From the sequence record SRR22947727_6145: a stretch of DNA of 34,480 nt. One strand, written 5' to 3'. The translations under genes and the position numbers were made by a program. Below are positions 206 to 33,893 of the stretch, piece after piece (within the stretch, counting starts at the first letter, position 1; every line of letters starts with the position of its first letter). The notes under the pieces are model-generated. The model worked only from the letters and a program-made list of their open reading frames with translations. It did not search any database and was not told the origin of the DNA.

Positions 206-444
206 ATGCCTGATTCGCTAAAACGTATCGCAGTCATTCTCGAAGGGCGGGTTCAATACGAGCGTAAAGTTCGCGAATGGAACTTGCGAAGCGGCTTTTG
301 ATTGAAACACGACAACCGCTCCGTGAAATCGCGATCCAGTGCGGGTGCGGAGATGCTTCGCGAATGGTGACGATGTTTCGCAGAGAATGCGGAATGACGC
401 CCGGTGAATTTCGGAAAGTAAAAACGAATTCTACGATCCAATAG
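206..444 (+). pseudogene. Internally deleted XylR/AraC-family transcriptional regulator remnant
   Basis: ATG206 gives MPDSLKRIAVILEGRVQYERKV, resembling a XylR-type N-terminus. A different frame (274-444) gives RMELAKRLLIETRQPLREIAIQCGCGDASRMVTMFRRECGMTPGEFRK, the C-terminal AraC HTH pattern. The central ligand-binding domain is absent. Confidence 0.75.
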
Positions 445-477
445 GGTACGTTCGATAAACCAATAGGGTTGGTTCGT
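433..477 (+). repeat. 45-bp element, copy 1 (two units in tandem orientation)
   Basis: ACGATCCAATAGGGTACGTTCG + ATAAACCAATAGGGTTGGTTCGT. By hand alignment it is 39/45 identical to the reverse complement of 33781-33825. Confidence 0.9.
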
Positions 478-4849: not shown

Positions 4850-4894
4850 GCGATCGAATAGGGGCGATTCAATGAGCGAACCCTGTTTGATCGT
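4850..4894. repeat. 45-bp element, copy 2 (head-to-head, degenerate)
   Basis: GCGATCGAATAGGGGCGATTCAATGAGCGAACCCTGTTTGATCGT; same length and core spacing as the other copies. Confidence 0.75.
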
Positions 4895-11830: not shown

Positions 11831-11909
11831 AGGGATATAAAGCGTCTCTGAGCGAGTATGGCAACCCCCGAATACCAGTTCCAAAATGAGACTCTGTTCT
11901 ACCCATTTC

Positions 11910-11931
11910 CTAACCAACAGGGTTGCTTCGA
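11910..11931 (+). repeat. Solo unit of the palindromic repeat
   Basis: CTAACCAACAGGGTTGCTTCGA matches the unit consensus CCAAYAGGGTTGSTTCG. Confidence 0.7.
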
Positions 11932-11940
11932 AAAGGCAAA

Positions 11941-11985
11941 ACGAATCTATAGGGTATGTTCGGCGAACCAACCCTATTGCTTCGT
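11941..11985. repeat. 45-bp element, copy 3 (head-to-head)
   Basis: ACGAATCTATAGGGTATGTTCGGCGAACCAACCCTATTGCTTCGT, immediately downstream of the rbsK stop. Confidence 0.88.
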
Positions 11986-11988
11986 GAA

Positions 11989-12978
11989 TCAGGGAAATTG
12001 CTGAACGTGCTGTTCGACTTGATCGAGATCCGGAATCGGGCTCTGGGCGCCTGCGCCAAGCGTGGTAAGCGCTCCCGCGACATTTGCGGAGCGAACCGCA
12101 TCGCGCAAATCCACACCGCGCGCGATTTGAGATGCAAAGCAGCCAGCGAATGCGTCGCCTGCGCCGACGGTGTCGATTGGAAGTACGGCCATGGTTGGAA
12201 CTTCGAATGGATCTTCGAACTCCGGATAAACGAGAGTTGGATCGCTTCCACGTGTGATTACGAGCGTGCCGATATTGAATTCATCCAGCTGCTGGCGAAC
12301 CATAGGCAGATCGCGGATTTGCCCGGGAAGAAAATCGAGCAATTCAATGGCTTCGGATTCGTTGACGATCACGTAATCGCTCTGAATCTCGCTCCACGGA
12401 AATGTCGTCCGGATCGGGGAGGGGTTCAAAATAACGGTCACGTCGGCGAGATTCGCGGCGTTTACGGCTTCGACGATGGTCGAAATTGGAATTTCAAATT
12501 GAGCCAACAACGCGTCCGCTTTCTGAATTGCGGCCTCAGCGTGATGAATTTCGTCAACCGAAGTGATCGCGTTTGCTCCCGGAGATACGATGATGGTATT
12601 TTCGCCTTCATCATCGACGGCGATGAATGCAGAACCGGATCGGATGCCGGGTTGATTTTTAATCAGATCGACGTTGATACCTTCGTTTTCGAGTCGCGTT
12701 CGGTAGGGACGAGCCATTTCGTCGTCGCCGAGAGATCCAATCAGTGTGACCTCGATTTCCTGACGGGCTGCCGCAACTGCCTGGTTGGCACCTTTGCCGC
12801 CAAAATTAGTAACCATCTCGGCCGCTGCGATGGTTTCACCGGGGTTGGGTAGACGGCCCACCCGCATCACATAGTCAATATTCAATGAGCCAGCCACGAC
12901 GAGATGGGGGGCATTGGGATCGATCGAAACCGGCGAAAGTTCTTCGTCGGCAAAAAAGTCTTCTGGGGCGTCGCTCAT
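11989..12978 (-). CDS. rbsK: Ribokinase (PfkB family)
   Basis: GSLNIDY, PNPGET, GGKGANQAVAAAR, AQFEIP, VNESEA, IDTVGAGDAFAG, GAQSPIP. Confidence 0.9.
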   Translation of the reverse strand: MSDAPEDFFADEELSPVSIDPNAPHLVVAGSLNIDYVMRVGRLPNPGETIAAAEMVTNFGGKGANQAVAAARQEIEVTLIGSLGDDEMARPYRTRLENEGINVDLIKNQPGIRSGSAFIAVDDEGENTIIVSPGANAITSVDEIHHAEAAIQKADALLAQFEIPISTIVEAVNAANLADVTVILNPSPIRTTFPWSEIQSDYVIVNESEAIELLDFLPGQIRDLPMVRQQLDEFNIGTLVITRGSDPTLVYPEFEDPFEVPTMAVLPIDTVGAGDAFAGCFASQIARGVDLRDAVRSANVAGALTTLGAGAQSPIPDLDQVEQHVQQFP

Positions 12979-14205: not shown

Positions 14206-15126
14206 TTACCGATTGATCGGCAACGCTCTGATGAATGTTTGATCCGCTTCTGAAAGCTGATCGATCTCGTAAGTGTGATTCTTTCCATTCTTTGTGAAGA
14301 AAATCTGGGTCTTGGATCGGCCCAAAATGCGCACTTCGATCTCATTTCCATTTGCGTTCGTCAATGTGCGGTCGGCTGGGAAAGCGGAGGGCGTCGGTTT
14401 TCCTTCGGGAAGGGTAATTGCATTGAGAATCGCCGTGGCTTCGACATCGAAAAGGCCTCCTTTGTACTCGATCGTTGCCGGAGATTTTTCGAAAAACGTG
14501 ACGTAAAACACGCAAGCCGCAAGATAGGCGCCTTGTGCTGACGGATGACTCCCGTCCGATTTATACAACGAATCTCCCAATTTGGGATCTGCTTTTCGAA
14601 CCTTTGCCCACGTGTCTCCCACCGGGGCGAGAATGGCGTCGCAACGTTTCGCGGCACTGGCGTAACTGTCGCTCAACTTTTTTTGCATCGCCTTGTAGGT
14701 AGGCATCGTCTGAAGGTTCATTTTGTCACCGTCTTTGCGCCCCCACGTCTGGTAGAAAACAGTCTTCGCACCACTCGCATCGATCAATATATCGAGATCA
14801 ATCACGGCAGATTCGAATTTCTTAGGAAACGCTGCCGGAGTCTGGCTTTGGTCCTGAAGAACCACAAAGTCCCAATTCCCTGTTTTAATCTTTTCCAGAG
14901 TCGCTTGAGTCTCGAGGTGGAATCCCAACGTTTTCCCTCCAGGGGTGATAAATTCCAATTCGGTGGTCTTCCCTTCAGGCGAAGCCTTTATCAAATTCGT
15001 AAGCGTTTTGCGGATTTGCCCGGAATAGCTGTTTCCGACGAACAATATTCGCGTCATTTCTTGGGAGTAGCCCGATGGCTGCAACAAAATGAGCAGTAGA
15101 AAGAGAATGATGATGTTTCGGCTCAT
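14206..15126 (-). CDS. Secreted SGNH-like hydrolase with a C-terminal SHD1-like domain
   Basis: Signal peptide, RILFVGNSYS, WDFVVLQDQS, DGSHPS...GAYLAA; C-terminal RTLTNANGNEIEV...IDQLSEADQTFI matches the SLA1-homology-domain-1 pattern. Confidence 0.8.
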   Translation of the reverse strand: MSRNIIILFLLLILLQPSGYSQEMTRILFVGNSYSGQIRKTLTNLIKASPEGKTTELEFITPGGKTLGFHLETQATLEKIKTGNWDFVVLQDQSQTPAAFPKKFESAVIDLDILIDASGAKTVFYQTWGRKDGDKMNLQTMPTYKAMQKKLSDSYASAAKRCDAILAPVGDTWAKVRKADPKLGDSLYKSDGSHPSAQGAYLAACVFYVTFFEKSPATIEYKGGLFDVEATAILNAITLPEGKPTPSAFPADRTLTNANGNEIEVRILGRSKTQIFFTKNGKNHTYEIDQLSEADQTFIRALPINR

Positions 15127-15578
15127 GGGGCAGTTTTGAGGGGATATGAATTGGATTCGTCGTGCAGCTTTTGAAGCTCAACGTCGTCAGCCCGACTCAG
15201 TGAATCGAAAAAAACTTTGTTCCAAGTGCAACTGTCAGCGGAAGCCCGGACAAGAGCGCCGTTCTTTGCGGTGATGTTCAAGCTGGAAAAATACAGAGCT
15301 GGTTTTGACGAATCGTAATTCTGAAAATACTGAAGCTCCGAGAACGGACCACTCTCCACTTGTTCGCTGGGCGGATGTGTTTTGATGAAAGCGGAGAGAT
15401 CAGATCCATTCTGAATCTGCCCTGTATCAAACTTTTGCCAAACAGGATGAATCTCATTGGCCATTTTCGACTGCAATTGAAAGTCGGACAACAAGCTGGA
15501 GCCATACAGTACAGCTGCGATCGCGCAGGCGAGAAGCACGCTCGCAATTGAGGTGTGTCTTCTCGTAAGGTTCTTCAT
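15123..15578 (-). CDS. Hypothetical membrane-anchored protein
   Basis: 151-aa ORF with an N-terminal hydrophobic helix; its stop overlaps the next start (ATGA). Confidence 0.7.
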   Translation of the reverse strand: MKNLTRRHTSIASVLLACAIAAVLYGSSLLSDFQLQSKMANEIHPVWQKFDTGQIQNGSDLSAFIKTHPPSEQVESGPFSELQYFQNYDSSKPALYFSSLNITAKNGALVRASADSCTWNKVFFDSLSRADDVELQKLHDESNSYPLKTAP

Positions 15579-15643
15579 GGCCTAAACCTAACCGCGTATG
15601 ATCGGCGATCAAAACCGATTATGTCGCTTTGAATCAACAAGGC

Positions 15644-15664
15644 CGGAAGATTTTCCATCTTCCG
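15644..15664 (-). terminator. Hairpin downstream of dhaK (possible terminator)
   Basis: On the minus strand, CGGAAGAT-GGAAA-ATCTTCCG forms a perfect 8-bp stem about 25 bp after the stop. The U-tail is weak. Confidence 0.45.
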
Positions 15665-15688
15665 CTACTTGAATTTGGATTCAGCACC

Positions 15689-16720
15689 TTAGCCGCCGTA
15701 ACGGCCTTCCATCTTGGAGAAGCAGTTCGACTGGCAAGGCATGTCCCACGCGGCTTTCAACTCGTCGTCCACGCGGGTGAACGAGAATGAAATGCCTGAC
15801 ATTTCCTGGCAGGTCACTAACGGTCCGGTCAAGACGTCGTACACTTTAATTCCGCGCTCGTTGAGAATTTCTTTGGCTTTGCGGAGACAAATCAACAGCT
15901 CCATCATAGTGGTGGAACCGAGTGAATTTACAAACACGATGACTTCGTCGCCTTCGGTGAGGGCTTCCACATCAGTGTCGTCATCGAAGTCCTGAAAAAT
16001 CAGATCGATGATTTGTGGCGTCAATTCATCCGCTGTGGTCATTGGGATTTCACCAACGCCTTGCTCGCCGTGAATGCCCATACCGAGTCCTACTTTGTCA
16101 TCGTCGAGTTCGAACGTTGGCTTTCCGGTTGCTGGAATCGATCCCGGAGACATCGAAACGCCGACGGAACGAGTCTGAAGATTGGTTTTTTCAGCAAAAG
16201 CGGCCAATTCGTCGAGTGAGCCCGCCGTTTGCGAAGCAGCACCAACCAATTTTACGATCGGGACCAAACCGGCAACACCGCGGCGATCGTGTTTTTGAGT
16301 CACTGGCGCTGAGCAAACGTCGTCGCAGATCAGAACTGTTTTCACTTCAATGTCTTCGTCCTCGGCATCTTCCGCGCCGATGTCGAAATTCATCACGTCG
16401 CCCGCGTAGTTTCCATACAAATAGAGGACGCCGTTGCCTTTGTTGACGGCTTCGGTCGCTTCTAAAACGATGTCAGGGGAGGGCGCTGCGAAAACGTCGC
16501 CACAAGCCGCACCATCGGCCAAATTTCGTCCGACGAGACCATGATAAATCGGCTCGTGTCCTGCACCGCCACCAACGAGTAGCGCGACTTTATTGTCAGG
16601 AATATCATTTTTTACAATCGAACGGCGTCCTACGAGCGAGCACTCGCCATTGTAGGCTTCGATAAGGCCCGCCATCAATTCGTCGGCGACATTCAGGGGA
16701 TCGTTGATCAGTTTTTTCAT
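15689..16720 (-). CDS. dhaK: Dihydroxyacetone kinase subunit DhaK-like protein
   Basis: MKKLINDP, GGGAGHEP, GDVFAAPS, NYAGDVMNF, RRGVAG, GMGIHGEQG, VNSLGST. K domain only. Confidence 0.92.
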   Translation of the reverse strand: MKKLINDPLNVADELMAGLIEAYNGECSLVGRRSIVKNDIPDNKVALLVGGGAGHEPIYHGLVGRNLADGAACGDVFAAPSPDIVLEATEAVNKGNGVLYLYGNYAGDVMNFDIGAEDAEDEDIEVKTVLICDDVCSAPVTQKHDRRGVAGLVPIVKLVGAASQTAGSLDELAAFAEKTNLQTRSVGVSMSPGSIPATGKPTFELDDDKVGLGMGIHGEQGVGEIPMTTADELTPQIIDLIFQDFDDDTDVEALTEGDEVIVFVNSLGSTTMMELLICLRKAKEILNERGIKVYDVLTGPLVTCQEMSGISFSFTRVDDELKAAWDMPCQSNCFSKMEGRYGG

Positions 16721-16893
16721 GGATCGAAATAAAGTGTTTTACGTAAAGTTTTCTGCCGTCATGAAATCGGTGTGAGGCCCATTTGTCAACGGTAAACGAC
16801 CGATTCCAGCACTTCTTCAATAATCGTGAAGGCCTACCCATTCACGGAAGATTCCATTTCAAATTCGGCGGCCGGAATGGACGTGAAAAAGAT

Positions 16894-17658
16894 TTACTGC
16901 TCCAACGGCCAAATCGCGGCGACCGATTTAGAATCGACCCATCCGCGCAATTCACCCGGAATATCGACGTATTTCCATGGGCCGCGGTCTTGCAGAATTC
17001 GGACCTCGGAACCCGGCGGCAAAGCGATCACTGCTTCGGCTCCGGGAGCAGGTGCGGTCAACGCAGAAACATTGCCTCCTTTAACGACGGCGAATTTTTC
17101 GATCGCTAAGGTGTCGGATCGTCGACTTCCTGCCCAAATCGCAGCAATCGCGAGGGACAGGCCGAATAGGCTGATGATGATGAGTAGTGGACGCCAGTCG
17201 CGCAGTTTTCGAATGATGATCATCGCGGCAAGGCTCAGCAAAAACACCCAGGCGCCGATCCACGCGTAGATCGTGAGTTCAGTCGGTTTCCGATTGAAGA
17301 GAAAGGCATCGAGTGGCTTTCGTTCAATTTCGAGATAGCCGTGGGTCTTTTGCAAAAACGTAAGGTTTTGATTGGCCTCAGTCATGCGCGGATCAAAAAC
17401 CCGAGCCCGCTGAAACCAGAGTGCCGCTTCGCCGGGTCGGTTTTGGCGGAAAATTGCGTTTCCGAGATTAAAAAACACGTCCTCAGAAACCTTGCCGGCC
17501 TGAATGAGTTTTCGATATTCCGATTCCGCCGCAGCGAATTTTCCGCTTTGAAAAGCGGCGTTTCCTTGAGCGAAAAGCACGTCGCGTTGATCTGCCTGAG
17601 CAGCAACCGCCCAGCCCAGAATGAGACCGAAAAAGAGAATGAGTCGGGCCGCTTTCAA
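16894..17658 (-). CDS. batE: BatE-like TPR + transmembrane + SH3-like protein
   Basis: Signal peptide, TPR (LFAQGNAAFQSGKF...FFNLGNAIFR), two TM helices, LPPGSEVRIL...GELRGWV; TTG start overlaps the batD stop. Confidence 0.75.
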   Translation of the reverse strand: MKAARLILFFGLILGWAVAAQADQRDVLFAQGNAAFQSGKFAAAESEYRKLIQAGKVSEDVFFNLGNAIFRQNRPGEAALWFQRARVFDPRMTEANQNLTFLQKTHGYLEIERKPLDAFLFNRKPTELTIYAWIGAWVFLLSLAAMIIIRKLRDWRPLLIIISLFGLSLAIAAIWAGSRRSDTLAIEKFAVVKGGNVSALTAPAPGAEAVIALPPGSEVRILQDRGPWKYVDIPGELRGWVDSKSVAAIWPLEQ

Positions 17659-19550
17659 AAGTCGAAATCGTCGGTTTTAGGTTTCGGTTTCGAACTGCCA
17701 CGAACTTCTGCTCGCGCTTTTGCCTTAGCCAGATTGGGCGGAACAGTGCCGAGGTGCTTCAAAATTTCGTGGGTTTCCGCCGCTTCCCGTTCGGACACAT
17801 TTCCGGTTCGCTGAGCTTCTTCAGCTCCGTAAAGTAGCCATTCGCAGCGTGACGCGAGGGCTTCTTTGGCCTTCAACGTCTCGGGTGGAATTCGGCTTTT
17901 ATCTTTGCCGGCCTGCTCACGCTCAAGTGCGACGAGAGTTTGCTTCACAGCGGTGTAGTATTCTGGCCGAGGTGAATTGGCGGATGGAATCGCCGCAGCG
18001 GCTTGAGTAAACGATTGCGGTTTTCCGTCGTCCGCGGCGTTTTTTCGCGCCGAACGTCTCCCGGCCCAGCGAACCAATCCAATTCCAAGCAACGTGAACA
18101 GCGTGATCGAAGGCACTGCTTGGGCGATCCAAAACATCGGTTGTGAAGTGGCTGCGACCGGCATTTTTCGCCACGTTGGAGGGAGCGTTTTAATCGTCAG
18201 GATATCGTTGAACTGTGCAGCTGGTTTTGCGGTGTCAGGCATGGAGGATGCTCCGTTTTGAGCTCCTGCGTTCGACATCATCGCTGCGGCCGGTTGGTTT
18301 GCCCTCGGATCGGGAGCGACCTGAATCGGAATCGGTTGGGTGGTTCGCGTGCTGTAGGTGGCCGTTGTCGGATCAAAAAAGGACAGTTCAAACGACGGGA
18401 TTTGTGTCATCTCTTTCTGCGGAATCACGATTTGGGAAAACGTCACTTTTCCGGGAGTCAGACCATCTGAATCCTCGGTTGGGTCGAGAATTTTCCGTGC
18501 TTCGTACGTCTTCCAGTCAGCCGGCCCAAGCGACAAAAATTTGGGAGCACCCATCGTTTCAAAATTTCCTGTTCCGGAAACCACGATCTCAAGCGGGATA
18601 GGATCGCCTACCGTGACTTGCTGGGTTGAAGCCATCGCCGTCACCGAAAAATTTCCCACCCCACCAGTAAACGACGCCGGTTTTCCCGGAGGAAGCGGCT
18701 TTACGTTCAATTCGAGCGAATTACTCGTCATCGACTGATTTCGCATCCGCGCGAGCAACATCCGCGGACCAAAGCTCGAACCGGTATCGACGATTCGCGC
18801 TGACATTTCTGCGGGGCCGATTTTGAACTTCCCCGATTTCAGAGCAAACATCGTTGCTGGAACAATCGCCGTATAAAATTGAAGTCCGTCAACTTCCCGC
18901 GCTCCAAATGTGAGTTTACTGGGACGGCGAACGACGATGGCATCATGCTCCAGACTCGCTTTGCCGATTTCCTGAATCTGGGCCTTCGAAAACGCGGTCA
19001 TCGTGAATGGGATCATCTGATTTTCGTAAATCTCTTTCACCTCGGTTTCCAAAACCGCAAAATAAGGCCGGGTCGAATCCATCGCAGATTTGGGTGTTTT
19101 GCGCTCAAAAACCGAAAGCGCGTGTTTTTCGGTTTTTGCCGGCAATCCATCGACTTCGATTTCGATTTCGGGAATGATGAAGTCGCCCGCCTTTTCGGCA
19201 ATCACCGTGAAAATGAAATCAAATCGAGTGGCGCCGTTGATATAACTTTGGTTTCTCGAAGTCTGCTGAATAATCAAACCTGGAACGCTGAGCGATTGGG
19301 GAACCGGTTTGGTTGGCACGCCATTGTTAATTGAAATCGTATATTGATTCAGCTCGCCGACCCCAAATTTAGCCCGATCGACGGAACTGGATACCGATGG
19401 GCCAGTTGCTTGAGCGATTGCAATCTCACTGGAAAAAAGCATCGCGAAAAACAAGACGGCGAGAAAAAACGATCCAACAGGGTTGGTTCGTCGATCATAC
19501 CCTATCCGATCGTGGAAAGGTGCTGGGTCGGAGTTTCTCAAAGCGATCAC
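17655..19550 (-). CDS. batD: BatD-family protein
   Basis: Repeated Ig-like BatD modules (AEKAGDFIIPEIEIEVDG; LELNVKPLP; FTGGVGNFSV; VTVGDPIPL; IPSFELSFFDP) and a C-terminal TM helix. The start is uncertain (GTG 19550). Confidence 0.82.
   Translation of the reverse strand: MIALRNSDPAPFHDRIGYDRRTNPVGSFFLAVLFFAMLFSSEIAIAQATGPSVSSSVDRAKFGVGELNQYTISINNGVPTKPVPQSLSVPGLIIQQTSRNQSYINGATRFDFIFTVIAEKAGDFIIPEIEIEVDGLPAKTEKHALSVFERKTPKSAMDSTRPYFAVLETEVKEIYENQMIPFTMTAFSKAQIQEIGKASLEHDAIVVRRPSKLTFGAREVDGLQFYTAIVPATMFALKSGKFKIGPAEMSARIVDTGSSFGPRMLLARMRNQSMTSNSLELNVKPLPPGKPASFTGGVGNFSVTAMASTQQVTVGDPIPLEIVVSGTGNFETMGAPKFLSLGPADWKTYEARKILDPTEDSDGLTPGKVTFSQIVIPQKEMTQIPSFELSFFDPTTATYSTRTTQPIPIQVAPDPRANQPAAAMMSNAGAQNGASSMPDTAKPAAQFNDILTIKTLPPTWRKMPVAATSQPMFWIAQAVPSITLFTLLGIGLVRWAGRRSARKNAADDGKPQSFTQAAAAIPSANSPRPEYYTAVKQTLVALEREQAGKDKSRIPPETLKAKEALASRCEWLLYGAEEAQRTGNVSEREAAETHEILKHLGTVPPNLAKAKARAEVRGSSKPKPKTDDFDF
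19469..19513. repeat. 45-bp element, copy 4 (head-to-head), within the 5' coding region of batD
   Basis: ACGATCCAACAGGGTTGGTTCGTCGATCATACCCTATCCGATCGT. Confidence 0.88.
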
Positions 19551-19634
19551 TTTTCTACGCCAAAGAGCGGCAAGGACAAACGGGTTTTTCTTAATTTTAT
19601 CGGAGAGCGAACGGAAAATCCGAAACGAAGCTGC

Positions 19635-21134
19635 TTAATCTTCCCATCCTTTCACTCGTTCGACCGCTTTTTTCCATTTTTTCAAATGCTCCGCAGCTTC
19701 GTCACGGGTCATTTTTGGTTCGAAATTTGCGTCTTCAATCCAACGCTCTGCGATCGCTTCGCGGCTTTCCCACAGTCCTACGGCGAGCCCGGCAAGATAG
19801 GCCGCACCGAGCGCGGTCGTTTCGGTGACTTCTGGGCGCACGACTTTCACTCCGAGTAAATCGGCCTGAAATTGCATCAAACACGCATTCATCGATGCGC
19901 CGCCATCCACCCGCAGTTCGGTCAACTCGATTCCTGAATCTGCTGTCATCGCGAGAAGCACCTCAGCGCTTTGAAAGGCGATGCCCTCCAATGCGGCACG
20001 GGCGAGGTGGCCTTTCGAAGCCCCTCGCGTCAGACCTAAAATACCACCGCGCGCGTACTGATCCCAATGCGGAGCTCCCAAACCGGCAAAGGCGGGAACA
20101 AAATAGACGCCGCCGTTGTCTTCCACTGAACTCGCCAGCGCTTCGATTTCAGAAGCATCTTTAATGATTCCCAGTTGATCGCGGAGCCATTGCACAACCG
20201 CACCTGCGATGAAAACGCTGCCTTCGAGCGCATATTCGGTCGTGTCGCCAATTTTCCAGGCAACGGTTGTCAGCAGATTGTTTTTCGAGCGCACGATTTC
20301 TTCGCCTGTATTCATCAACATGAAACAACCCGTGCCGTAGGTGTTTTTTGCCAATCCGGGAGCATGGCAAGCCTGACCAAAAAGCGCGGCATGCTGATCC
20401 CCGGCGATTCCTGCGATCGGGATGGGATGCCCAAAAATGGTCGATTCTACGTTTTCGTAGATTTCACTACTGCTGCGAATCTCTGGCAGAATCGCAGCAG
20501 GAATGTCGAAGAGCTTCAGCATTTCGGGATCCCAATCCAGCATCTCAATATTAAAAAGCAGCGTCCGGGAGGCATTGGTCACGTCGGTGATGTGAAGCCG
20601 GCCCGCCGTGAGATTCCACACCAGCCACGAATCGATCGTCCCAAAAGCCAGGTCGCCGGCCTCCGCCCGTTCCCGCGCCCCTTCAACATGATCGAGTAGC
20701 CAGCGGATTTTTGATCCGGAAAAATACGCATCGAGCACTAAGCCTGTCCGTTGTTGAATTTCGTCCGCATGTCCCGCCTCACGGAGTCCGGTGCAGTAAT
20801 CCGCCGTTCGTCGATCCTGCCAGACGATGGCGTTGTGAATGGGCTTTCCCGTTTGACGATCCCAAATTACGGTGGTTTCCCGCTGATTTGTGATCCCAAT
20901 CCCGGCAATATCGGAGGATGAAATACCCGCCTTTGAAATCGCATCGTGAGCGGTTTCCAGCTGAGCTTGCCAGATTTCCATTGCATCGTGCTCGACCCAG
21001 CCGGGTTTTGGAAAAATCTGCTCGAACTCCTGTTGAGACTTCGATTTGGCTTTTCCATCTTCGCCAAAAATAATCGCCCGCGAGCTAGTGGTTCCTTGAT
21101 CGAGCGCGAGGATGAATTTTGAGGAATCGGGCAT
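19635..21134 (-). CDS. glpK: Glycerol kinase
   Basis: [87 protein letters not shown]. Confidence 0.97.
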
Positions 21135-21264
21135 GACTCATTATTCCTGAACGGAACGGGTTTTGCAAAAAATTACGACGGTAGAGCCGGAATTTCGCAT
21201 TTATTAACTTTTGCTGGCGTCTAATCTAAGAAATCACCACCTCACTTCGTTTTATTCCGACATC

Positions 21265-22136
21265 GTGAACTTTTCAAAATCCGCATCCTTTCTTTCGCTT
21301 GCCGCATGGTCTGTTTTTGCGTTCGGATCGATGTCGGTGGCTGCTCCTGCCTTGAAAAAAGCAAGCGTAGCCAGTATTAAGCCACAGGATCTCGTCGAAT
21401 ACGCGACGATGGAACCCAGAGTCCAAAAGCTCGTTCGTGAAGCGCTGGCATTGACCACAAAGGGGCTGGGTTATCGATACGGCTCGAATTCCCCGAAGAA
21501 TAAAGGAATGGATTGCTCTGGGACCGTCCAGCACACCTTGAATGCAGCAGGCCTCTCGCAAATCCTGCGATCGTCCTATACGCGATGTATCATTGGACCA
21601 AAGACGCAGGGACGTTGAACAAAGTTAGCGGCGTGCATTCTCACGATCACAGCGGTCTTTCAAAGTTGAAGCCGGGTGACTTGCTATTTTGGGAAGGAAC
21701 TTATGCGACGGCAGGTCGGGTGCCGCCGATTTCTCACGTGATGATTTATCTCAGAACGCTAAAAGAGGACGGTAAAAAAGTGATGTATGGCGCGAGCAGT
21801 GGTCGTCGTTATCGGGGAAAGAAAATTCACGGGGCCAGCGTGTTCGACTTCAGTTTGCCGAAGGTGGATTCGAAAGCGAAATTTGTCGGTTACAGTCCGA
21901 TTCCGGGATTCAAAAGTGTCAAACCTGCGCCGAAAAAGACCGTGGCTTTCAGAAAAAAGACGGAATCTGAGGTGACGAAACCAGTCGCGCCGAAAAAAAC
22001 CGCAACGGCCGTCGAAACTAAACCAGTGGCTGAAGAACAGACACCGCCACCCACAACTGTGCCAGTGGCTACTGCTCGGAAAACGGTTCTGCCAAAACTG
22101 TTTCCAAAACTTCGCGCAGCCCTGTCGAAGAAGTGA
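21265..22136 (+). pseudogene. Frameshifted NlpC/P60 cell-wall peptidase
   Basis: Frame A has a signal peptide, YRYGS and the catalytic GMDCSG. Frame B continues MYHWTK, LKPGDLLFW and SHVMIY. The break is at TATACGCGATG (about 21580-21587). Confidence 0.85.
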
Positions 22137-24558
22137 GGTCTTCAAATCGGAAGCCGGGTTCATTTTCGATTCCCCGATAAAGCGCTCGCAGACGAAGCGC
22201 GACATTCTGGGCAAGTTCATTACCACGGGTTTCGATAAGCAGCTCCCTCAATTCTACCGGCCCGCTGAACTCTCTGCCGCCATGAAGTTGGCCGGTGGCA
22301 TTGACTGGTTTTCCTGCTTCCAGTGTCCGCCAGCGACCGGTCGCATCGAAATTCTCCAGTCCAAACCCGATCGGATCGATCTTTTCATGACAGCGAGCGC
22401 ATTCGGTTTTGGTTGAATGCTCCGCGAGTTCTTCACGCAGCGTTTTTCCCCGCGCCTCGCCCGCGTCTCCCGGTAGCTCGCCGGCGTCAGGAAGGGGATC
22501 CCCCACTGGCAACCCTAGCAAATTTTCCCAGACCCATTTTCCACGCCGAACTGGGTTGGTTCGTGTCGGCGAGGACGTTGCCACCAACACGGCACCTTTT
22601 CCGAGAAGGCCAAATCGATTCGAGTTTTCCAGATCGGTTGATTCATAATAGGCCGCTAATTTCTCATCAGCGAACGACTCGTTGGCGGTTAATAAATCGG
22701 AAACCGGCCGGTTTTCGCGGACGAGTTTTGCGATGAAATTATGAACTTCAGCACGCATCGAATCAGCAATGTCGGGCGTGAAATCAGGCCAGAGATTTCG
22801 GTCAGGCGCAATTTCTTCGAGTTCGAGCCACTCATCTGAAAAGCGACGAAAAAACGCGTCCGAACGAGGATCCGTCAGCATCCGCGCGATTTGAGATTTC
22901 AGCACATCCGGAATTCTGAGATCTGCTTCAGCCAGTTCCAAATCAGATTTTGAGAGCCACAAAAAATACGAGAGGTCGGACGCCTCTTGCGAATTTTTCT
23001 GTTCATCTCCGCGAAATAGAAAATCGGATGACATCAGAATCGCGGCGAGCGCTAGCTTCACCGAACGCGCCCGGTCTTCCTCGCGCCGCTGCGCTTCGAG
23101 AACGACGCGGACATACGGTGCAAGCTCAGCTTCGGAAACGGGGTGCCTAAATGCCTGCTCGGCAAATTCACGAACCAGCGTGGTCGGATCAACTGGCTCC
23201 CGCATTCGCTGAATCAAATTCCAGTCCTGCGGCGCGATATTCGATTCGGGTAAAACCGGACCTGAAACGGCAAATTTTTCGACATAAAGTTTTCCCTGAT
23301 ACGCCATCCAATCCGTCCATTCAACGTGTGCAACCCGATCCAGAATTTCCTGATTTCTCTGTAGCCGATCCTGATTTTTTGCCAACCACGCCGCTGCTAA
23401 TTCCGTCTTTGAAAACTCCGATTCAAGAGCCAGTTTCGTTAAAATCCGATCCCAATCAGCCTCATGTTCGTGATAATATTTACGGCGCTGATCAATTTCC
23501 CGGGAATCACCATCGACTCCGAACGCGGTAAGGTATTCGATGCTTTCCTGCATCCCGAGCGCTTTTAAATTCAACGATTCACGCAATTTGCGGGCTGCTG
23601 GAGTTTCGTCCGGCGGGGCAGGGAAGTTGGCTGAATTTTTGCGAGACTGTTCATCAATTTTTCCAACAAAATCCGGTGGCAATGGAATATGGGGAACGAG
23701 GTTTTTGCTACCGATTTTTACCGAGTGAAACCCGCGCCGAACAAAAGTGGACACTGATTTTTTGATCGGATTTTTGATGTCGTTTTTTGCAAATTTGATT
23801 TCCGCGACGACTTCGCCTGAGACAAAAAACTGAGCAACACACGGCTGACCAATCGTAGCTGCATTGGCGGAAAATTCATAAAATCCATCGACCGGAAATT
23901 CGACCTCTACTTCCAGAAAATGAGTCGGTTGCACCACCATCATTCCATCGAGATGCGCCTTCACACCGGGAGCGCTCGTGGTCATTTTTTGAGCCGAAAA
24001 CGAGCTCGTTTTACGATTATCGAGGGCGATCGCAAACGCGCCATCGAGCGCCCGTTCAGCCGAAGCAAACAGCAATTCCATCTGCGACGGCGTGATCGCC
24101 AACGCGGCCCGGTCATTCGAAAAACCGCTCGTTCCCTGACCGTCGATTGGTAAATTTTCACCCGCCCGCAGATCCACGCCGAGAAGATCACGCAGCGTGT
24201 TGGCGTATTCTTCACGCGTTAGTCGTCGCACCCTTGGAGATTCCAGCTCAGGGAACTCGATTTGAGTAAAATCGTGACGAAGTTTGGTAAGCATCGCATC
24301 GCGTTCTGCTCGTGTCGGATATGGTGCTTTTGTCGGCATTTCCTCCGAATCAATTTGGTCAATCAGCGTGAGCCAATCATGCCGATTTGCTGCGGAAAAG
24401 TTGCGCAGGTCCGTTTCACCTTCGAGGTTTTGCGGATCATCACCGTGGCATTTGAGGCAGTAAAAAGACATGAAATCATCCGCGAAAACAGCTCTGTTGC
24501 CGCTTCCCCAAATCACCGCGCCGCAAAACACGTGAAAAATGATTTTCCCAAATCGCAT
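22069..24558 (-). CDS. Planctomycete cytochrome c protein with DUF1587/1592/1588/1595/1585-type domains
   Basis: Signal peptide, CLKCH...EMP, RRLTREEYANTLRDLLG, FAEQAFRHPV, LSYFLW, RTNPVRRGKWV, CARCH-EKIDPIGFGLENFDATGRWR. Confidence 0.88.
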   Translation of the reverse strand: MRFGKIIFHVFCGAVIWGSGNRAVFADDFMSFYCLKCHGDDPQNLEGETDLRNFSAANRHDWLTLIDQIDSEEMPTKAPYPTRAERDAMLTKLRHDFTQIEFPELESPRVRRLTREEYANTLRDLLGVDLRAGENLPIDGQGTSGFSNDRAALAITPSQMELLFASAERALDGAFAIALDNRKTSSFSAQKMTTSAPGVKAHLDGMMVVQPTHFLEVEVEFPVDGFYEFSANAATIGQPCVAQFFVSGEVVAEIKFAKNDIKNPIKKSVSTFVRRGFHSVKIGSKNLVPHIPLPPDFVGKIDEQSRKNSANFPAPPDETPAARKLRESLNLKALGMQESIEYLTAFGVDGDSREIDQRRKYYHEHEADWDRILTKLALESEFSKTELAAAWLAKNQDRLQRNQEILDRVAHVEWTDWMAYQGKLYVEKFAVSGPVLPESNIAPQDWNLIQRMREPVDPTTLVREFAEQAFRHPVSEAELAPYVRVVLEAQRREEDRARSVKLALAAILMSSDFLFRGDEQKNSQEASDLSYFLWLSKSDLELAEADLRIPDVLKSQIARMLTDPRSDAFFRRFSDEWLELEEIAPDRNLWPDFTPDIADSMRAEVHNFIAKLVRENRPVSDLLTANESFADEKLAAYYESTDLENSNRFGLLGKGAVLVATSSPTRTNPVRRGKWVWENLLGLPVGDPLPDAGELPGDAGEARGKTLREELAEHSTKTECARCHEKIDPIGFGLENFDATGRWRTLEAGKPVNATGQLHGGREFSGPVELRELLIETRGNELAQNVALRLRALYRGIENEPGFRFEDLTSSTGLREVLETVLAEPFSEQ

Positions 24559-24599
24559 CGATACTAAACTAGCACGAAACCAGAAGAAAATCGGCTCGC

Positions 24600-24644
24600 A
24601 CGATCCAATAGGGTTGCTTCATCGAACAGACCCTATTGGATCGT
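24600..24644. repeat. 45-bp element, copy 5 (head-to-head, most symmetric copy)
   Basis: Perfect 16-bp inverted repeat CACGATCCAATAGGGT (24599-24614) / ACCCTATTGGATCGTG (24630-24645). Confidence 0.92.
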
Positions 24645-24755
24645 GAAAAATCATTTCGGCTTTCAAGTATTGTCTTGAAACCATGCGGGGCTCTCACGGG
24701 AAAATCACATCTTCAGAAACGTCGTCCGAAAAACCCGCGAAGGCGTTTCCTGTGT

Positions 24756-25748
24756 ATGCCTGATTCATCATGGAAAAGTGCGTTTCTGGGATCTCTTGTC
24801 GCCGATGCTTTTGCGATGCCGGTTCACTGGTATTACGATCGAAATGCGTTGGTCCGAGACTATGGGGTGGTGCAGGAATTTGTAGCTCCGAAAAATCCCC
24901 ACGCTGATTCGATTCTGTGGCGTTCGGAATACACGCCGGTGAATGAAAAAGGCGATATTCTGCGCGAACAGGCGGCTTTCTGGGGACAGCGGGGGATTCA
25001 CTATCACCAGTTTCTCGAAGCGGGCGAAAACACCGTAAACTACCGACTCGCGGCTGAATTGGTGCGCTGGTCGGACGGGGGTGGCGGCTACGAGGCGGAT
25101 GCCTGGCTGGAACGTTACATCGAGTTAATGCTGACTCCAGGTTGGCATCGGGACACATATTTGGAGGAATATCACCGCGGTTTTTTCATGAAATATGCGT
25201 CGGGAAAGGCTCCCCGGAAATGCGCGATTCGTGATGAACACATCGGAGGCTTGGCTCAGGTCGCAGCCGTTTGTCTGGCGGCGGAAAAGCAGGATTTGGC
25301 GGCGCTTCGAGCGACGGTGAGAGAACATGTGGGGCTCACGCACGAACACAAAAACGTTCAACTAGCTGCGGACACTCTGGTTCGACTCTTGTGGAAAATC
25401 GGGGAGGACGTTCCGCTCCGAGATGCGATTCAAAGCGAGGCAGGTGATTGGTTTTCAGCGAAAAAAGCGGAACGCTGGATTGATTTGCCGGATTCTCAAA
25501 TCATCGGACAGAAATACAGTCCGGCGTGTTATATCGATCAATCCATGCCGGCATCGATTTATCTGGCATGGAAATATCACGATGATTTTTTCCGTGGGAT
25601 TCAGGCCAATGCGATGGTCGGTGGCGATAACTGTCACCGTGGAGCTGTCGTTGGAGCTCTCCTAGGAGCGGCGAACGGAGTGGATGACAAATGGGTTTCG
25701 GAGCTTCACGAACCAGCCCTATTGGATCGGGTTAGAGCGATTTCTTGA
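24756..25748 (+). CDS. ADP-ribosylglycohydrolase-family protein
   Basis: AFLGSLVADAFAMPVHWYY, HVGLTH, ANAMVGGDNCHRGAVVGALLGAANG. The likely start is ATG24756. Confidence 0.85.
   Translation: MPDSSWKSAFLGSLVADAFAMPVHWYYDRNALVRDYGVVQEFVAPKNPHADSILWRSEYTPVNEKGDILREQAAFWGQRGIHYHQFLEAGENTVNYRLAAELVRWSDGGGGYEADAWLERYIELMLTPGWHRDTYLEEYHRGFFMKYASGKAPRKCAIRDEHIGGLAQVAAVCLAAEKQDLAALRATVREHVGLTHEHKNVQLAADTLVRLLWKIGEDVPLRDAIQSEAGDWFSAKKAERWIDLPDSQIIGQKYSPACYIDQSMPASIYLAWKYHDDFFRGIQANAMVGGDNCHRGAVVGALLGAANGVDDKWVSELHEPALLDRVRAIS
25708..25729 (-). repeat. Solo unit of the palindromic repeat inside the 3' end of the ADP-ribosylglycohydrolase CDS
   Basis: ACGAACCAGCCCTATTGGATCG is the reverse complement of CGATCCAATAGGGCTGGTTCGT, one mismatch from consensus. 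Confidence 0.85.
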
Positions 25749-26106
25749 AAATCAAAGTCGCCCAACCGGTCATGAACAGTAGTCCACCGAGAGGGGTAAT
25801 GGGCCCGAGAAACTTGAGTGAGTTATCGACGGCCAATCCGTAAAGGCTTCCGGAAAAACAGAGGATTCCAGCGAGAAGAATGATCTTCACAAACCTCCCT
25901 ACTTTGGTTCCGCGAAGAGCAAGGATGAACAGGGCGAGTCCGTGGATTAGATGGTAGAAAACAGCGGTGTCCCATACGTCGGCATTGAAACTCGCGCCGA
26001 GTTTTTTCGGCAGCAAATGTGCGCCAAATGCACCGAGAGCGATGCCAATCAAAAGAAGGGCGGCCGCTAATTTTCGCCAAAGAACATTCTCACCAGTTTC
26101 CGTCAT
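25732..26106 (-). CDS. DUF423 (YgdD/TMEM256-family) membrane protein
   Basis: ALGAFGAH, TAVFYHLIHGLAL, GILCFSGSLY, LGPITPLGG...GW. Confidence 0.93.
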   Translation of the reverse strand: MTETGENVLWRKLAAALLLIGIALGAFGAHLLPKKLGASFNADVWDTAVFYHLIHGLALFILALRGTKVGRFVKIILLAGILCFSGSLYGLAVDNSLKFLGPITPLGGLLFMTGWATLIFKKSL

Positions 26107-26160
26107 ACTTTACGGAAAGGGGCCTTGGATCTCTTGTCCAATGACAAAACTGAAACGGTG

Positions 26161-27078
26161 CTATTTTCGCACGACCTGAAAGCCGTTGGGGCGAAGGATC
26201 AGTTTCTCGTTCTCGTTGTCAAAATGAAGCGTTTTAGAGCCGGCGGTTAGTTCCATTTTTGCACCGGTCAATTCGAGCGATTGATCATTCGGCTTGTAGA
26301 CGAGTTCATCGGCTTTGGCGGTTTCGACCTGTCCGTTTTCGAGGGTTCGTTCAATGATTGCGCCAAAGGCCTGAAAGGCTCCGGTTGATGCGTAGCTCGC
26401 GGTCGAACTTGAGCTTGCCTGAACCACGAGCCGTTCGGCTTGAATGTGAAATTCGGGGTGGTTGACCTCGACTTTCCCATCGTATTCGAGAGCTGAATCG
26501 GTGCGTTTGCTGTGATTTGCGGAGACCGCGAAGGACTCAACGCGGCCTGCAGTGGCGGCTTCAAATACATCAATCGAAGGAGTAAAAGTTCCGTTTAATT
26601 CAGCCGGAGAAGTGGTTTCGACCAAGGTGAACTCGGCAACCTGCATGATGGGAGCGATTGGTTTCAGATCAGTCGCAGCCACAACCCCAGTCACGTCACG
26701 AACGATTCCGATGCGATTTGATGGCGCTGGATTTTCTTCGGGCATCGTATCAGGTTCAGCCAGCTGGTTGTCGGCAGTCGCGTAGGTCACGGTGAGTTGA
26801 AATGTAGTTTCAGCCCGCTCCCCGCCTTTGATCTGATGAAGGACCAGTGCGGTCATTCCAAAAAATAAGGTGACGGCTGCCGCCATTTTTGCCCAGTCCT
26901 GCCAGCCGAAACTCGCTTTGGCGATCGGTTGGGGAAGCTCGAGTGGTTGGTTTACCGTGCGAAGCAAAATCGCTTCGACGAGAGCCGTGTCTTCGCCGGA
27001 GCCGAGTCGTGCGTGTTCGCTGAGGAGGGCGTCCATCACGTCTGGCTTCTTGGTGGGAATATTGGATTCCTGATTCAT
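26161..27078 (-). CDS. Putative anti-sigma factor: single TM helix and C-terminal LptA/OstA-like domain
   Basis: ATGA overlap with the ECF sigma gene; short cytoplasmic N-terminus, WAKMAAAVTLFFGMTALVL TM helix, Pro/Thr-rich linker, beta-rich C-terminus. Confidence 0.7.
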   Translation of the reverse strand: MNQESNIPTKKPDVMDALLSEHARLGSGEDTALVEAILLRTVNQPLELPQPIAKASFGWQDWAKMAAAVTLFFGMTALVLHQIKGGERAETTFQLTVTYATADNQLAEPDTMPEENPAPSNRIGIVRDVTGVVAATDLKPIAPIMQVAEFTLVETTSPAELNGTFTPSIDVFEAATAGRVESFAVSANHSKRTDSALEYDGKVEVNHPEFHIQAERLVVQASSSSTASYASTGAFQAFGAIIERTLENGQVETAKADELVYKPNDQSLELTGAKMELTAGSKTLHFDNENEKLILRPNGFQVVRK

Positions 27079-27680
27079 GATTCTTGGAGGGATTGGTCTG
27101 ATATTTTGCGATCGACGCAGGCTTTCAGCAATTCGCGGGCGCGTTGGAGGCGTTTGCGAATGGCTGCCGGAGAAACGCCGAGTGCTTCTGCGACTTCTTC
27201 GCCGTTTTGGTCATTGTAATAAAATTCGTTCACTGTTTCGCGAAGGTTCTCGGGAAGGCGTTCGAGGCACGATGACAAGGCATCAAAAACAGTGCGGTTT
27301 CCGGCCGCACTTTCGGCCTGCCAGGCGGCGATATCGGCGTCCATCTCAGCGATGTTGGTATCGGAATACTGATAACGCTTGTTTTTCCGAACCCACTCAC
27401 GCCATTTGTTGCGGACGATTCCACGCATCCATGTCGGGAAATCGCGGGTCACGTCAAACGTGTCCATTTTATCGAAAGCGACGATGAACGCTTCCTGAAC
27501 GATGTCATTTGCAGTGTTTGATTCGCGGGTCAGCGCCCGGGCGTAAACGATCAATTCGCGGTGATGCGCGCGCACCAAATCACCAAAAACAGCCGGATCA
27601 TGAAGATCTGGCTGGCTTTCAGAAAGCTGGTTCTCTACGTCGTTCGCGATGGCGGAAATGAGGTGCATTGGCTCGTTCAC
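27075..27680 (-). CDS. ECF-type RNA polymerase sigma-70 factor
   Basis: Region 2 (FGDLVRAHHREL, ANDIVQEAF, FPTWMRGIVRN) and region 4 (CLERLP, EEVAEALGVSPAAIRKRLQRARELL). The start is uncertain (27680 or 27668). Confidence 0.93.
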   Translation of the reverse strand: MNEPMHLISAIANDVENQLSESQPDLHDPAVFGDLVRAHHRELIVYARALTRESNTANDIVQEAFIVAFDKMDTFDVTRDFPTWMRGIVRNKWREWVRKNKRYQYSDTNIAEMDADIAAWQAESAAGNRTVFDALSSCLERLPENLRETVNEFYYNDQNGEEVAEALGVSPAAIRKRLQRARELLKACVDRKISDQSLQES

Positions 27681-27742
27681 AGTTAATTGCCCAATTTGGT
27701 AGGTTTTGTGACATGAAAATGCATGTCGTGGGCTCAGTTCGG

Positions 27743-29149: not shown

Positions 29150-29219
29150 GTGGGCAGGATAGTGAATTTGCGGAAAACGCGCAATTCCGAAACCTGACGG
29201 ATTTGTGTGTTGGTCGAAT

Positions 29220-29711
29220 TTATGCCTCAGGATCTCTTTTCAGCCCTGTTACCCAGTTGATCACCAGCCACATTGGCACGATGCAAACAACACCGAAAGT
29301 GCAATCGATGAGTTGCCAGTAAAACGGGATTCCGCGAATGGGGCCGCAGATGAGTGCGATTGGAATTACGAGAATACAGGCCCAAAGCCCCACGTATAAA
29401 TTGCCGATGTAGCGGACGGGATCGCGAAAAACGGGAACGAAAAACAGGGCAATGATGATGTGCCCAAATGCCAACCAATCGGTGCCGTAAGCGATGAATG
29501 GATATGCTTTTTGCGTTTCAACCAGACCCTCGCGAACTTTCAAAATCCAGTGGGCAAGGCCCTCGTAATTGGCGGGATTGAAGTCAGCGCCTTTTACAAA
29601 AAAGGAAGAGAGTATTTCTAATTCCCACACGAGAGGGAATGCGGTGACTCCACTGACGATGAGCCCAAAGATGATGAAAGCGACGGCGAAGCGGATTTTT
29701 TTCAATGGCAT
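29220..29711 (-). CDS. Conserved hypothetical membrane protein (about 4 TM helices)
   Basis: GLIVSGVTAFPL, YPFIAYGTDWLAFGH, RDPVR, RGIPFYWQLIDC. The start is ATG29711 or GTG29753, the latter overlapping the upstream stop. Confidence 0.8.
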   Translation of the reverse strand: MPLKKIRFAVAFIIFGLIVSGVTAFPLVWELEILSSFFVKGADFNPANYEGLAHWILKVREGLVETQKAYPFIAYGTDWLAFGHIIIALFFVPVFRDPVRYIGNLYVGLWACILVIPIALICGPIRGIPFYWQLIDCTFGVVCIVPMWLVINWVTGLKRDPEA

Positions 29712-29749
29712 TCTATGAGAGATTACGCTGGTTTGTGCCAGCCGGTCAC

Positions 29750-31147: not shown

Positions 31148-31189
31148 CGTTGTCGGAATAGGGGTTAAAAAGTGAGTTGGGATGCGGTT

Positions 31190-33715: not shown

Positions 33716-33780
33716 GGAATTTTCAGGTTCGAGACATTCAACCGACTGCACACAAAAAAGTTTCTGAGAAAACCGTTTTT

Positions 33781-33825
33781 ACGAACCCACCCTGTTGATT
33801 CATTGAACGTACCCTATTGAATCGT
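33781..33825 (-). repeat. 45-bp element, copy 6 (two units in tandem, minus strand)
   Basis: Reverse complement ACGATTCAATAGGGTACGTTCAATGAATCAACAGGGTGGGTTCGT aligns without gaps to 433-477. Confidence 0.9.
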
Positions 33826-33893
33826 AAAGCCAATTTGGGCTATCAGATCAGGAGATGAACCGTTAGAAACGTTGTGTTAATGAGTCTAATTCG

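Follow-up and report, generated by a model that had tools for sequence, protein, structure and literature searches.

Short imperfect palindromes that occur in hundreds to thousands of extragenic copies are best known as the REP elements of Enterobacteria and Pseudomonas. In E. coli, many of these elements are found just behind stop codons. BIMEs are mosaics of regularly spaced REPs with conserved linkers, as described in one study (PMC2817692). REP-like repeats are common, and the origin of their dimer types is rarely traceable. REPINs, which are much longer than 45 bp and are associated with RAYT transposases, consist of two inverted REP-like units that form one hairpin. According to two reports, they are vertically inherited and long-lived and undergo lineage-specific expansions (PMC3337134, 10.1101/2022.05.22.493013). 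Di Nocera et al. sorted REP dimers into HH, TT, and HT classes in 2013; in that study, one end of the unit carries an unpaired GTAG or CGTC tetranucleotide in the REP super-families, heterodimer partners differ in stem or loop, and the REP dimer partners of the verrucomicrobium Opitutus terrae are only 1-2 bp apart (PMC3733652).

Inverted arms around an asymmetric spacer are also the layout of the recombination sites loxP, FRT, and dif and of the Neisseria dRS3 repeats. The overlap of loxP, FRT, and dif measures 6-8 bp and their arms 11-13 bp. A short spacer inverted in place, with a tendency of the arms to homogenize, is seen in the minute hairpin-loop inversions of chloroplasts and in template-switch cases; template switching between short inverted repeats is reported both to invert the spacer and to homogenize the arms (PMC8604942).

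The repeat discussed here was encountered in a window of 34,480 nucleotides, the whole stretch of DNA analyzed. It is a REP/BIME-like family that lacks the classical REP-RAYT tag and a neighboring RAYT and contains many tandem dimers. We consider it likely that its isomers arise by slow in-place inversion of the spacer within this REP/BIME-like repeat, through template switching or recombination between arms, and not by a recombinase switch. The kinship with REPs and BIMEs is visible in the unit (23 bp with consensus-complementary 9-bp arms, where REPs are imperfect palindromes of 20-40 bp), in the copy number (about 2,100 units, with 705 of 1,005 clusters between genes, where REPs exceed about 100 mostly extragenic copies), and in the clustering (regular 22- and 32-bp spacing and 120 composites with a conserved linker). 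The differences are equally plain. REPs in BIMEs alternate in orientation, whereas head-to-head doublets here amount to only 62% in genome G000, 25% in G031, and 91% in G002, with tandem shares of 36%, 65%, and 8%, respectively. REP/BIME partners lie 20-100 bp apart, and partner units here overlap by one base. Like REPINs, the elements keep their positions within a genus and mostly differ in position between genera, yet the doublet has a length of only 45 bp. The dimer classes recall those of Di Nocera et al., but neither of the tags is present in the unit logos, tandem dimers are many, and interconversion of dimer types at a locus is not described in the available part of that paper (PMC3733652). 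The chloroplast and template-switch cases are scattered single loci, whereas about 2,000 near-identical substrates per genome are exposed here in parallel. Finally, arms of 9 bp around a 5-bp spacer are unlike those of loxP, FRT, and dif, and switching is slow.

A repeat family in the window and across the genome

The window contains six 45-bp doublets, four head-to-head and two tandem, which bears out the reading of the initial annotation that one element exists in two isomeric forms of the same length and spacing. Each unit comprises 23 bp, with 9-bp near-palindromic arms flanking a 5-bp YAGGG core, and a doublet is made of two units that start 22 bp apart and have one base in common. The head-to-head copies, which have no strand, carry YAGGG in the first unit and CCCTR in the second, and the two tandem copies lie on opposite strands. 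Doublet 1 (433..477, plus strand) is tandem with two TAGGG cores and consists of units 433-455 (34.3 bits) and 455-477 (29.0 bits); an AraC-like HTH remnant precedes it, and an AhpC/TSA-redoxin gene follows about 100 bp on. Doublet 2 (4850..4894) is head-to-head in a divergent spacer ahead of a sulfatase gene and folds as RNA into a single long hairpin of -25.3 kcal/mol; in the sister species G001 (locus L011), the sulfatase homologue has a tandem doublet on its upstream side. Doublet 3 (11941..11985), head-to-head with a fold of -17.4 kcal/mol, ends 3 bp short of the stop codon of a minus-strand PfkB-kinase ORF (11989-12978), and a further plus-strand unit at 11909..11931 (21.2 bits) starts 32 bp ahead of it to make a triplet (+32+22-). 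The head-to-head doublet 4 (19469..19513) lies on the 5' side of a BatD-domain gene, and doublet 5 (24600..24644), also head-to-head, is a nearly perfect palindrome in a divergent spacer with a fold of -30.9 kcal/mol (z -9.1). A lone minus-strand unit at 25708..25730 (26.5 bits) falls within the final codons of an ADP-ribosylglycohydrolase ORF. Doublet 6 (33781..33825, minus strand) is tandem, with two CCCTR cores on the plus strand, and stands 30 bp upstream of the start of a PSCyt/PSD1 gene. The six doublets had all been listed by the initial annotation, and the two additional units, 11909-11931 and 25708-25730, had been overlooked. The Pfam content includes PSCyt, PSD, DUF1501, and sulfatases, and the same DNA occurs in marine metagenomes; this only suggests that the bacterium is marine and belongs to the Planctomycetota-Verrucomicrobiota group.

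The 12 doublet units of the window served to build a weight matrix, which was refined by one iteration on G000, a draft genome of 5.97 Mb in 229 contigs with 51% G+C. It gave 2,011 matches of at least 16 bits, and the same genome read backward gave none of at least 14 bits and 64 of at least 6 bits. The search confirmed a repeat family far beyond chance. Merging of overlaps left 2,109 units that score 12 bits or more, in 1,005 clusters comprising 366 head-to-head, 190 tandem, and 7 tail-to-tail doublets and 230 single units, with composites making up the remainder. The consensus of the unit is approximately ACGAWCCAAYAGGGTNNGTTCGW, an asymmetric 5-bp core between two 9-bp near-complementary arms, and the unit ends are ACGA and TCGT.

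Spacing is strict. Among neighboring units at most 60 bp apart, 900 pairs have starts exactly 22 bp apart and 175 exactly 32 bp apart; the distances 18, 21, 23, 30, 31, and 35 bp are each represented by only 1-2 pairs, and the range between the two peaks is almost empty. The exact-core head-to-head pattern likewise matched 370 times at the proper gap and 0-1 times at each other gap from 8 to 31. The invariant spacing proposed from six copies thus holds across the genome, with 22 bp inside doublets and 32 bp at doublet-doublet junctions. In 120 clusters the two doublets are joined by a conserved 9-bp linker (approximately AAAGSCNTT) into 99-bp composites. The flanks of isolated doublets are rich in T on the 5' side and in A on the 3' side, without conservation further out.

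A genome-wide tally of core orientations, as proposed in the initial annotation, yielded 570 head-to-head, 318 tandem, and 12 tail-to-tail pairs at 22 bp in G000. With head-to-head as the reference, about 19-20% of units are flipped. The 12 tail-to-tail pairs compare with 32 expected under independence (chi-square 19.7), which indicates that the orientation forms are no free mixture. The tendency of doublets to pair a TAYG-type with a TTGS-type unit also stood up in the larger sample. The two variable bases after GGGT are identical in both units in only 28 of 366 isolated head-to-head doublets as compared with 64 expected, and TG/TG doublets number 19 as compared with about 41 (2x2 p = 5e-7). 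With unit types mixed in this way, perfect central palindromy is avoided.

Placement was assessed with a crude, purpose-made caller based on ORFs and codon usage, which called 4,217 genes over 86% of G000. The 705 clusters between called genes divide into 401 in co-directional, 152 in convergent, and 152 in divergent spacers, against a background of 2,558, 714, and 716 such spacers. A further 241 clusters lie inside called ORFs; the 108 of these that fall in the first tenth probably precede the actual start of the gene. Another 59 are at contig edges, where the elements may contribute to assembly breaks. Elements are mostly 3-20 bp downstream of stop codons; of 705 gene 3' ends facing an element, 412 have it within 1-30 bp after the stop codon, with a mode at 11 bp. 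This is the placement of REP elements in E. coli. A genome-wide REP/BIME-like family behind stop codons had not been recognized in the initial annotation.

Flanking direct repeats of 2-8 bp were not above expectation at any of 81 offset pairs, although old duplications could have decayed; the repeat resembles a MITE of a DDE transposon in its inverted outer arms but not in having a target-site duplication. A bias of tandem orientation toward one replichore, which had been put forward for testing, was not borne out against local GC skew (35/60 versus 40/38, p = 0.08, on contigs too short for replichores). For transcription, the effect was weak: tandem doublets between co-directional genes have the C-core on the sense strand in 50 cases versus 28 (p = 0.017, uncorrected), single units have it there in 37 versus 33, and tandem orientation did not follow the local gene-strand majority (p = 0.85).

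Distribution, inherited positions, and changes of isomer

Two genera of one bacterial family carry the repeat in abundance, and in the family's other genera it is sparse. The three genomes of the genus hold 322, 187, and 363 matches to an exact 21-base pattern; outside the genus, among 28 genomes of the family and order, one had 2 matches and the other 27 had none. With three mismatches allowed in 41 genomes of the family, the genus gave 1,943, 1,327, and 2,370 matches and the second genus, g27, gave 1,157 and 158, whereas the remaining genomes gave 3-54 as compared with 0-18 in the backward control, properly spaced doublets included. In a 399-kb sample of G031, a g27 genome with 64.7% G+C, the 23-bp unit, the 22-bp frame, and the CAGGGT core are the same as in G000, with GATC-type arms. 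Occurrence across genera shows that the repeat family predates the genus, with expansion in some lineages.

Inheritance of positions was followed in 800 kb of G001, whose genes are about 70-80% identical to those of G000 at the DNA level. Of 87 clusters in G001, 64 had a flank that aligned to within 200 bp, and for 44 of these 64 a G000 cluster lay at most 200 bp from the predicted spot. In syntenic spacers, a G001 element was present in 8 of 10 with a G000 element and in 1 of 57 without one (p = 6e-8). Orthologous copies agree at variable positions more often than random ones (0.566 versus 0.46, sd 0.029, for 20 pairs under a looser mapping). In 24 pairs, identity between the two species is 74.5% for the element with its cores set aside, about 38% for edge-anchored flanks, and 88-100% at consensus positions. 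Shared positions together with conservation of the element indicate that the elements predate the split of G000 and G001, have held their positions since, and are maintained by selection or homogenization. Between genera, the signal is much smaller: a G000 element was found at 9 of 28 homologous gene 3' ends with a G031 element and at 24 of 168 without one (p = 0.03). Since positions are mostly unshared at this distance, each lineage has had its own proliferation of the family. Where G001 has an element and none was detected in G000, empty-site alignments were unreadable in saturated intergenic DNA, and one such locus held a decayed copy.

The enzyme expected by analogy to REPINs did not turn up beside the repeats. 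Matches to PF01797 (Y1 transposase) numbered 1 in G000, with an internal TAA, 6 in G001, 1 weak one in G002, and 15 in G008, a genome almost without the repeats. No unit of at least 10 bits was found within 1.5 kb of the Y1 genes at 9 loci of the 23 matches in these four genomes, and draft assemblies may lack a copy. At these loci, then, the association that defines a REPIN-RAYT system, a Y1 gene flanked by the repeat, is absent and no cognate RAYT was found.

Isomers change between species, and slowly. Among 24 orthologous doublet pairs from G000 and G001, a small sample out of 800 kb and a single sister genome, the isomer was the same in 19, including 8 that are tandem in both, and different in 5, with 7 of 48 units flipped. 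Agreement by chance would be 43% (p = 3e-4), and retention above chance is what leads us to call the flipping slow. Three copies of the window illustrate the changes. Copy 1 is tandem in G000 and head-to-head at its G002 ortholog, where the arms are practically equal and the difference is essentially the second core only. Copy 4 is head-to-head in G000 and tandem at its G001 ortholog (L006). Copy 6 shows all three states, being -- in G000, ++ in G001, and +- in G002. The claim that tandem and head-to-head forms interconvert by inversion of the middle of a unit is upheld by these loci. Neither variable unit spacing nor separate old clades without interconversion, the outcomes that the initial annotation had named as speaking against it, were found.

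The balance of forms also differs among genomes. Counted with exact cores, head-to-head, tandem, and tail-to-tail doublets number 370/214/10 in G000, 323/225/14 in G001, 633/56/5 in G002, 142/376/57 in G031, and 68/60/17 in G052. The fraction of flipped units is 5% in G002, about 20% in G000, and 43% in G031, a range that fits copies starting in one form and flipping slowly. The 376 tandem doublets of G031 exceed the 281 expected, so flips are not independent neutral events. Tandem copies are conserved between species and are the commonest form in G031, which argues against an indispensable long hairpin.

Inversion within populations was sought in contigs of the metagenome runs X6, X7, X11, and X14, from four studies, which match the window from 14481 to 34480 at about 0.1-0.7% divergence. 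The within-population check suggested initially was carried out on these contigs only: no isomer difference was present in three doublets of the four populations among the 40 of 675 differences listed, and contigs hide minor variants. Peaks of metagenome depth at the elements stem from other copies.

Proposed turning of the middle of a unit and possible readers of its conserved bases

For the extent of the inversion, tandem doublets were oriented with the flipped unit second, and their base frequencies were compared with 'kept' and 'inverted' predictions from the second unit of head-to-head doublets. In 188 tandem doublets, positions 29-38, which comprise the core and the inner arm, fit the 'inverted' prediction, positions 24, 27-28, and 41-45 fit the 'kept' prediction, and positions 38-39 are intermediate. 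It follows from this position-wise fit that about 10-12 bp have been turned inside a fixed scaffold. Flipped units are set apart in a second way: the three inner pairs of the arms are all perfect in 79 of the 188 (42%), as compared with 187 of 920 unflipped units (19-22%), for an odds ratio of 2.8 (p = 2e-9). Both features expected of spacer inversion at inverted repeats are present, a segment bounded within the arms and arms that are homogenized, and together they match the footprint reported for template switching (PMC8604942). The better-matched inner arms are the mark of a homology-driven inversion of the spacer.

The course of events that we propose would begin with the head-to-head doublet, the form usual in this genus, which can fold as a single long hairpin. 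Tandem and rare tail-to-tail doublets would derive from it by inversion in place of the middle of one unit, that is, the core with the inner 2-4 bases of each arm, and neither the 22-bp frame nor the outer ends of the arms would change. Template switching during replication, or recombination between a unit's own inverted arms, is the likely cause that we infer, and the tempo would be that of evolutionary time and not that of a programmed switch.

Other routes to the same isomers can be imagined. If the middle of a unit were overwritten from an oppositely paired copy among the roughly 2,000 available, ectopic gene conversion would produce the observed footprint of a replaced middle and retained outer arm ends without any inversion in place. 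Concerted evolution could also underlie lineage-wide traits such as the share of T at the Y position (46% of G000 units versus 13% in G001) and the species-typical doublet centers. Conversion alone, however, does not predict that inner arms become more self-complementary in flipped units, and orthologous copies retain locus-specific variable bases, which means that conversion is not pervasive; we judge this route distinctly unlikely. The initial annotation had likened the layout of inverted arms around an asymmetric spacer to the sites of tyrosine recombinases, and a tyrosine-type site-specific recombinase or invertase could then flip units as a programmed switch. The likeness of layout is real, but the probability of an active switch appears close to negligible and the link is not supported. 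The isomer is inherited across species in most pairs, the ends of the inverted stretch fall within the arms and appear variable, and flipped units have the better-matched inner arms. Furthermore, arms and spacer are shorter than those of loxP, FRT, and dif, conservative recombination at one site alone is unable to turn that site's spacer around, and the absence of an isomer difference at three loci among those listed for four populations adds weak evidence in the same direction. That tandem and head-to-head doublets are separate subfamilies, each descended from its own masters without interconversion, might be proposed from the spread of tandem shares between G002 and G031, which lineage-specific masters could yield. 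This is very improbable when isomers change at orthologous loci, when copy 6 of the window is found in all three states, and when a flipped unit retains the outer arm polarity of its scaffold. Some changes of isomer may instead reflect a fresh insertion at the same spot, given that intergenic flanks are too diverged for alignment. In-place inversion of the spacer remains our preferred account of how the isomers arise.

What the conserved bases are for is a separate matter. Real units have a mean of only 5.2-5.9 Watson-Crick pairs out of 9 in their arms, and when partners were shuffled between copies, the arms of a unit gave no sign of compensatory covariation (z from -2.2 to +1.3). Head-to-head doublets have a slight excess in their outer arms (z 3.1). 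Their two inner arms, like those of tandem doublets, are clearly anti-complementary (z -7.7 and -4.1, respectively), and the strongest dependencies are between adjacent and not paired bases. These results bear on the idea that the head-to-head hairpin acts in transcripts as a 3'-UTR element, whether as a stabilizer, a terminator-like structure, or a translational signal, with tandem copies as decayed forms. The position 3-20 nt past stop codons would suit such a role, as would the folding of the four head-to-head window copies into single long hairpins of -17 to -31 kcal/mol while the tandem ones form only weak structures (-5 to -13 kcal/mol, z near -1), and a palindrome gives the identical RNA from both strands, which would suit convergent gene pairs. 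An RNA-level role is nonetheless rather unlikely in our estimate. Besides the lack of covariation and the anti-complementary inner arms, 152 of 1,005 clusters sit between divergent genes, tandem copies are conserved from species to species and make up more than half of the doublets in G031, and the flanks, rich in T ahead of the element and in A behind it whichever strand is read, are the reverse of an intrinsic terminator, where a T run comes after a G+C-rich hairpin on the transcribed strand.

Alternatively, each unit could bind a conserved protein on duplex DNA, with core orientation of minor importance. Such architectural sites, the second reading offered by the initial annotation, would be compatible with in-place inversion of the spacer and are a serious possibility that falls somewhat short of an even chance. 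Units two or three helical turns apart would place bound proteins on one face of the helix, and the strict spacing of 22, 32, or 54 bp is consistent with this arrangement. Specific bases are conserved without covariation of the arms, the core remains conserved in flipped units, 8 of 24 orthologous pairs are tandem in both species, the element is conserved even though its flanks are saturated, and core and geometry are common to genera at 65% and 51% G+C. On the other hand, the fixed spacing could reflect a composite ancestor combined with a detection bias against copies with indels, and the strong under-representation of tail-to-tail doublets in genus g1 implies that orientation is not fully free. 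The conserved bases may be read by a putative protein, either a binding factor or a mobilizing enzyme, or by an RNA-level factor. Phased conservation without covariation, across genera of very different base composition, makes a putative reader of duplex DNA, a protein, the most attractive idea.

Value of the repeat as a record of small inversions

The more specific proposal that the units are phased sites for a conserved chromosomal protein of this bacterial family, read independently of core orientation, is somewhat unlikely as it stands. If true, it would explain the exact two- and three-turn spacing at about 1,000 sites per genome, the retention of particular bases, with no covariation, in genera with G+C contents of 51% and 65%, and a tandem majority in G031 without decay of the element. 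The flipped share, rising from G002 through G000 to G031, would then be a built-in clock telling how old a repeat population is.

The family demonstrates that a REP-like repeat can be abundant, conserved, and apparently able to expand with neither a GTAG or CGTC tag nor a neighboring RAYT. For annotation, it accounts for many conserved intergenic palindromes. Each genome offers about 2,000 near-identical inverted-repeat substrates at loci that are fixed across species, so that small in-place inversions can be counted, polarized, and given rates in nature. Within a familiar kind of repeat, this one keeps an unusually clear record of tiny inversions.

Gene setting of the repeats

An AraC-type helix-turn-helix C-terminus was read from the translation of window positions 230-444 in frame 1, and because in-frame stops precede it, this stretch is probably the remnant of a gene. 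Its reading frame enters the first unit of doublet 1 (433..477), where the TAG within the first core (442-444) terminates it. Any core that has T at its Y position (YAGGG) supplies a stop codon. Further along the window, a domain search returned the planctomycete-type domains PSCyt1-3, PSD1, PSD3-5 and DUF1501 at 22069-24558 and 29750-33751, and several sulfatases and an ECF sigma factor are encoded near these genes. Such a set of genes is typical of marine Planctomycetota or Verrucomicrobiota.

In G000, the draft genome that carries the same repeat, the sole match to the IS200-like Y1_Tnp transposase family lies on contig C171 (1501-1872 of locus L001) and has an internal TAA. It is flanked by dihydroxy-acid dehydratase-like and sulfatase-like genes, which were named by eye from their translations and not by family search, and no repeat was found near the match at this locus.

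Repeat copies and contig ends

Some breaks in the assembly may be due in part to the repeats. Among the 1,005 repeat clusters of G000, 59 lie at a contig edge and lack a called gene on one side because the contig stops there. In the window, the summed depth of aligned metagenomic contigs increases by a factor of two to five in the bins that hold doublet 4 (19150-19816) and doublet 5 (24486-25152), in all four runs, and many loose contig ends start at the exact element borders. Both the peaks and the loose ends arise from the alignment, at these places, of contigs that derive from other repeat copies.

Composite elements, the doublet centre and a sister family

Genome-wide in G000, 120 clusters are composites in which a conserved 9-bp linker, with a consensus of approximately AAAGSCNTT, connects two doublets, so that units start at 0, 22, 54 and 76 bp. 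The doublet itself has at its centre (element positions 21-25 of 45) a CpG-containing palindrome in an asymmetric variant, which is found in both orientations. In G000 and its congener G001, the centre mostly carries a transition on one side that gives TTCA or TGAA; in a third species of the genus, G002, it is mostly TTTG or CAAA. Doublets with both central CpGs mutated number 22 of the 366 isolated head-to-head doublets in G000, which is below expectation.

A sister repeat family is present in G031, of the 65% G+C genus g27 (loci L074-L093), with units of approximately CCGATCNAACAGGGTNNGATCGG and the same 22-bp spacing as in G000. The three dimer types are nearly equal in number in a 399-kb G031 sample (9, 9 and 8), and tandem is the majority form genome-wide.

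The Y base of the core

The Y base is C in 52% and T in 46% of cores genome-wide in G000, versus 84% and 13% in samples of G001 (contigs C1 and C3), and at many orthologous sites TAGGG in G000 stands against CAGGG in G001. A single core position has undergone a C-to-T shift across a whole lineage, a change that may reflect methylation of the cytosine or relaxed recognition.
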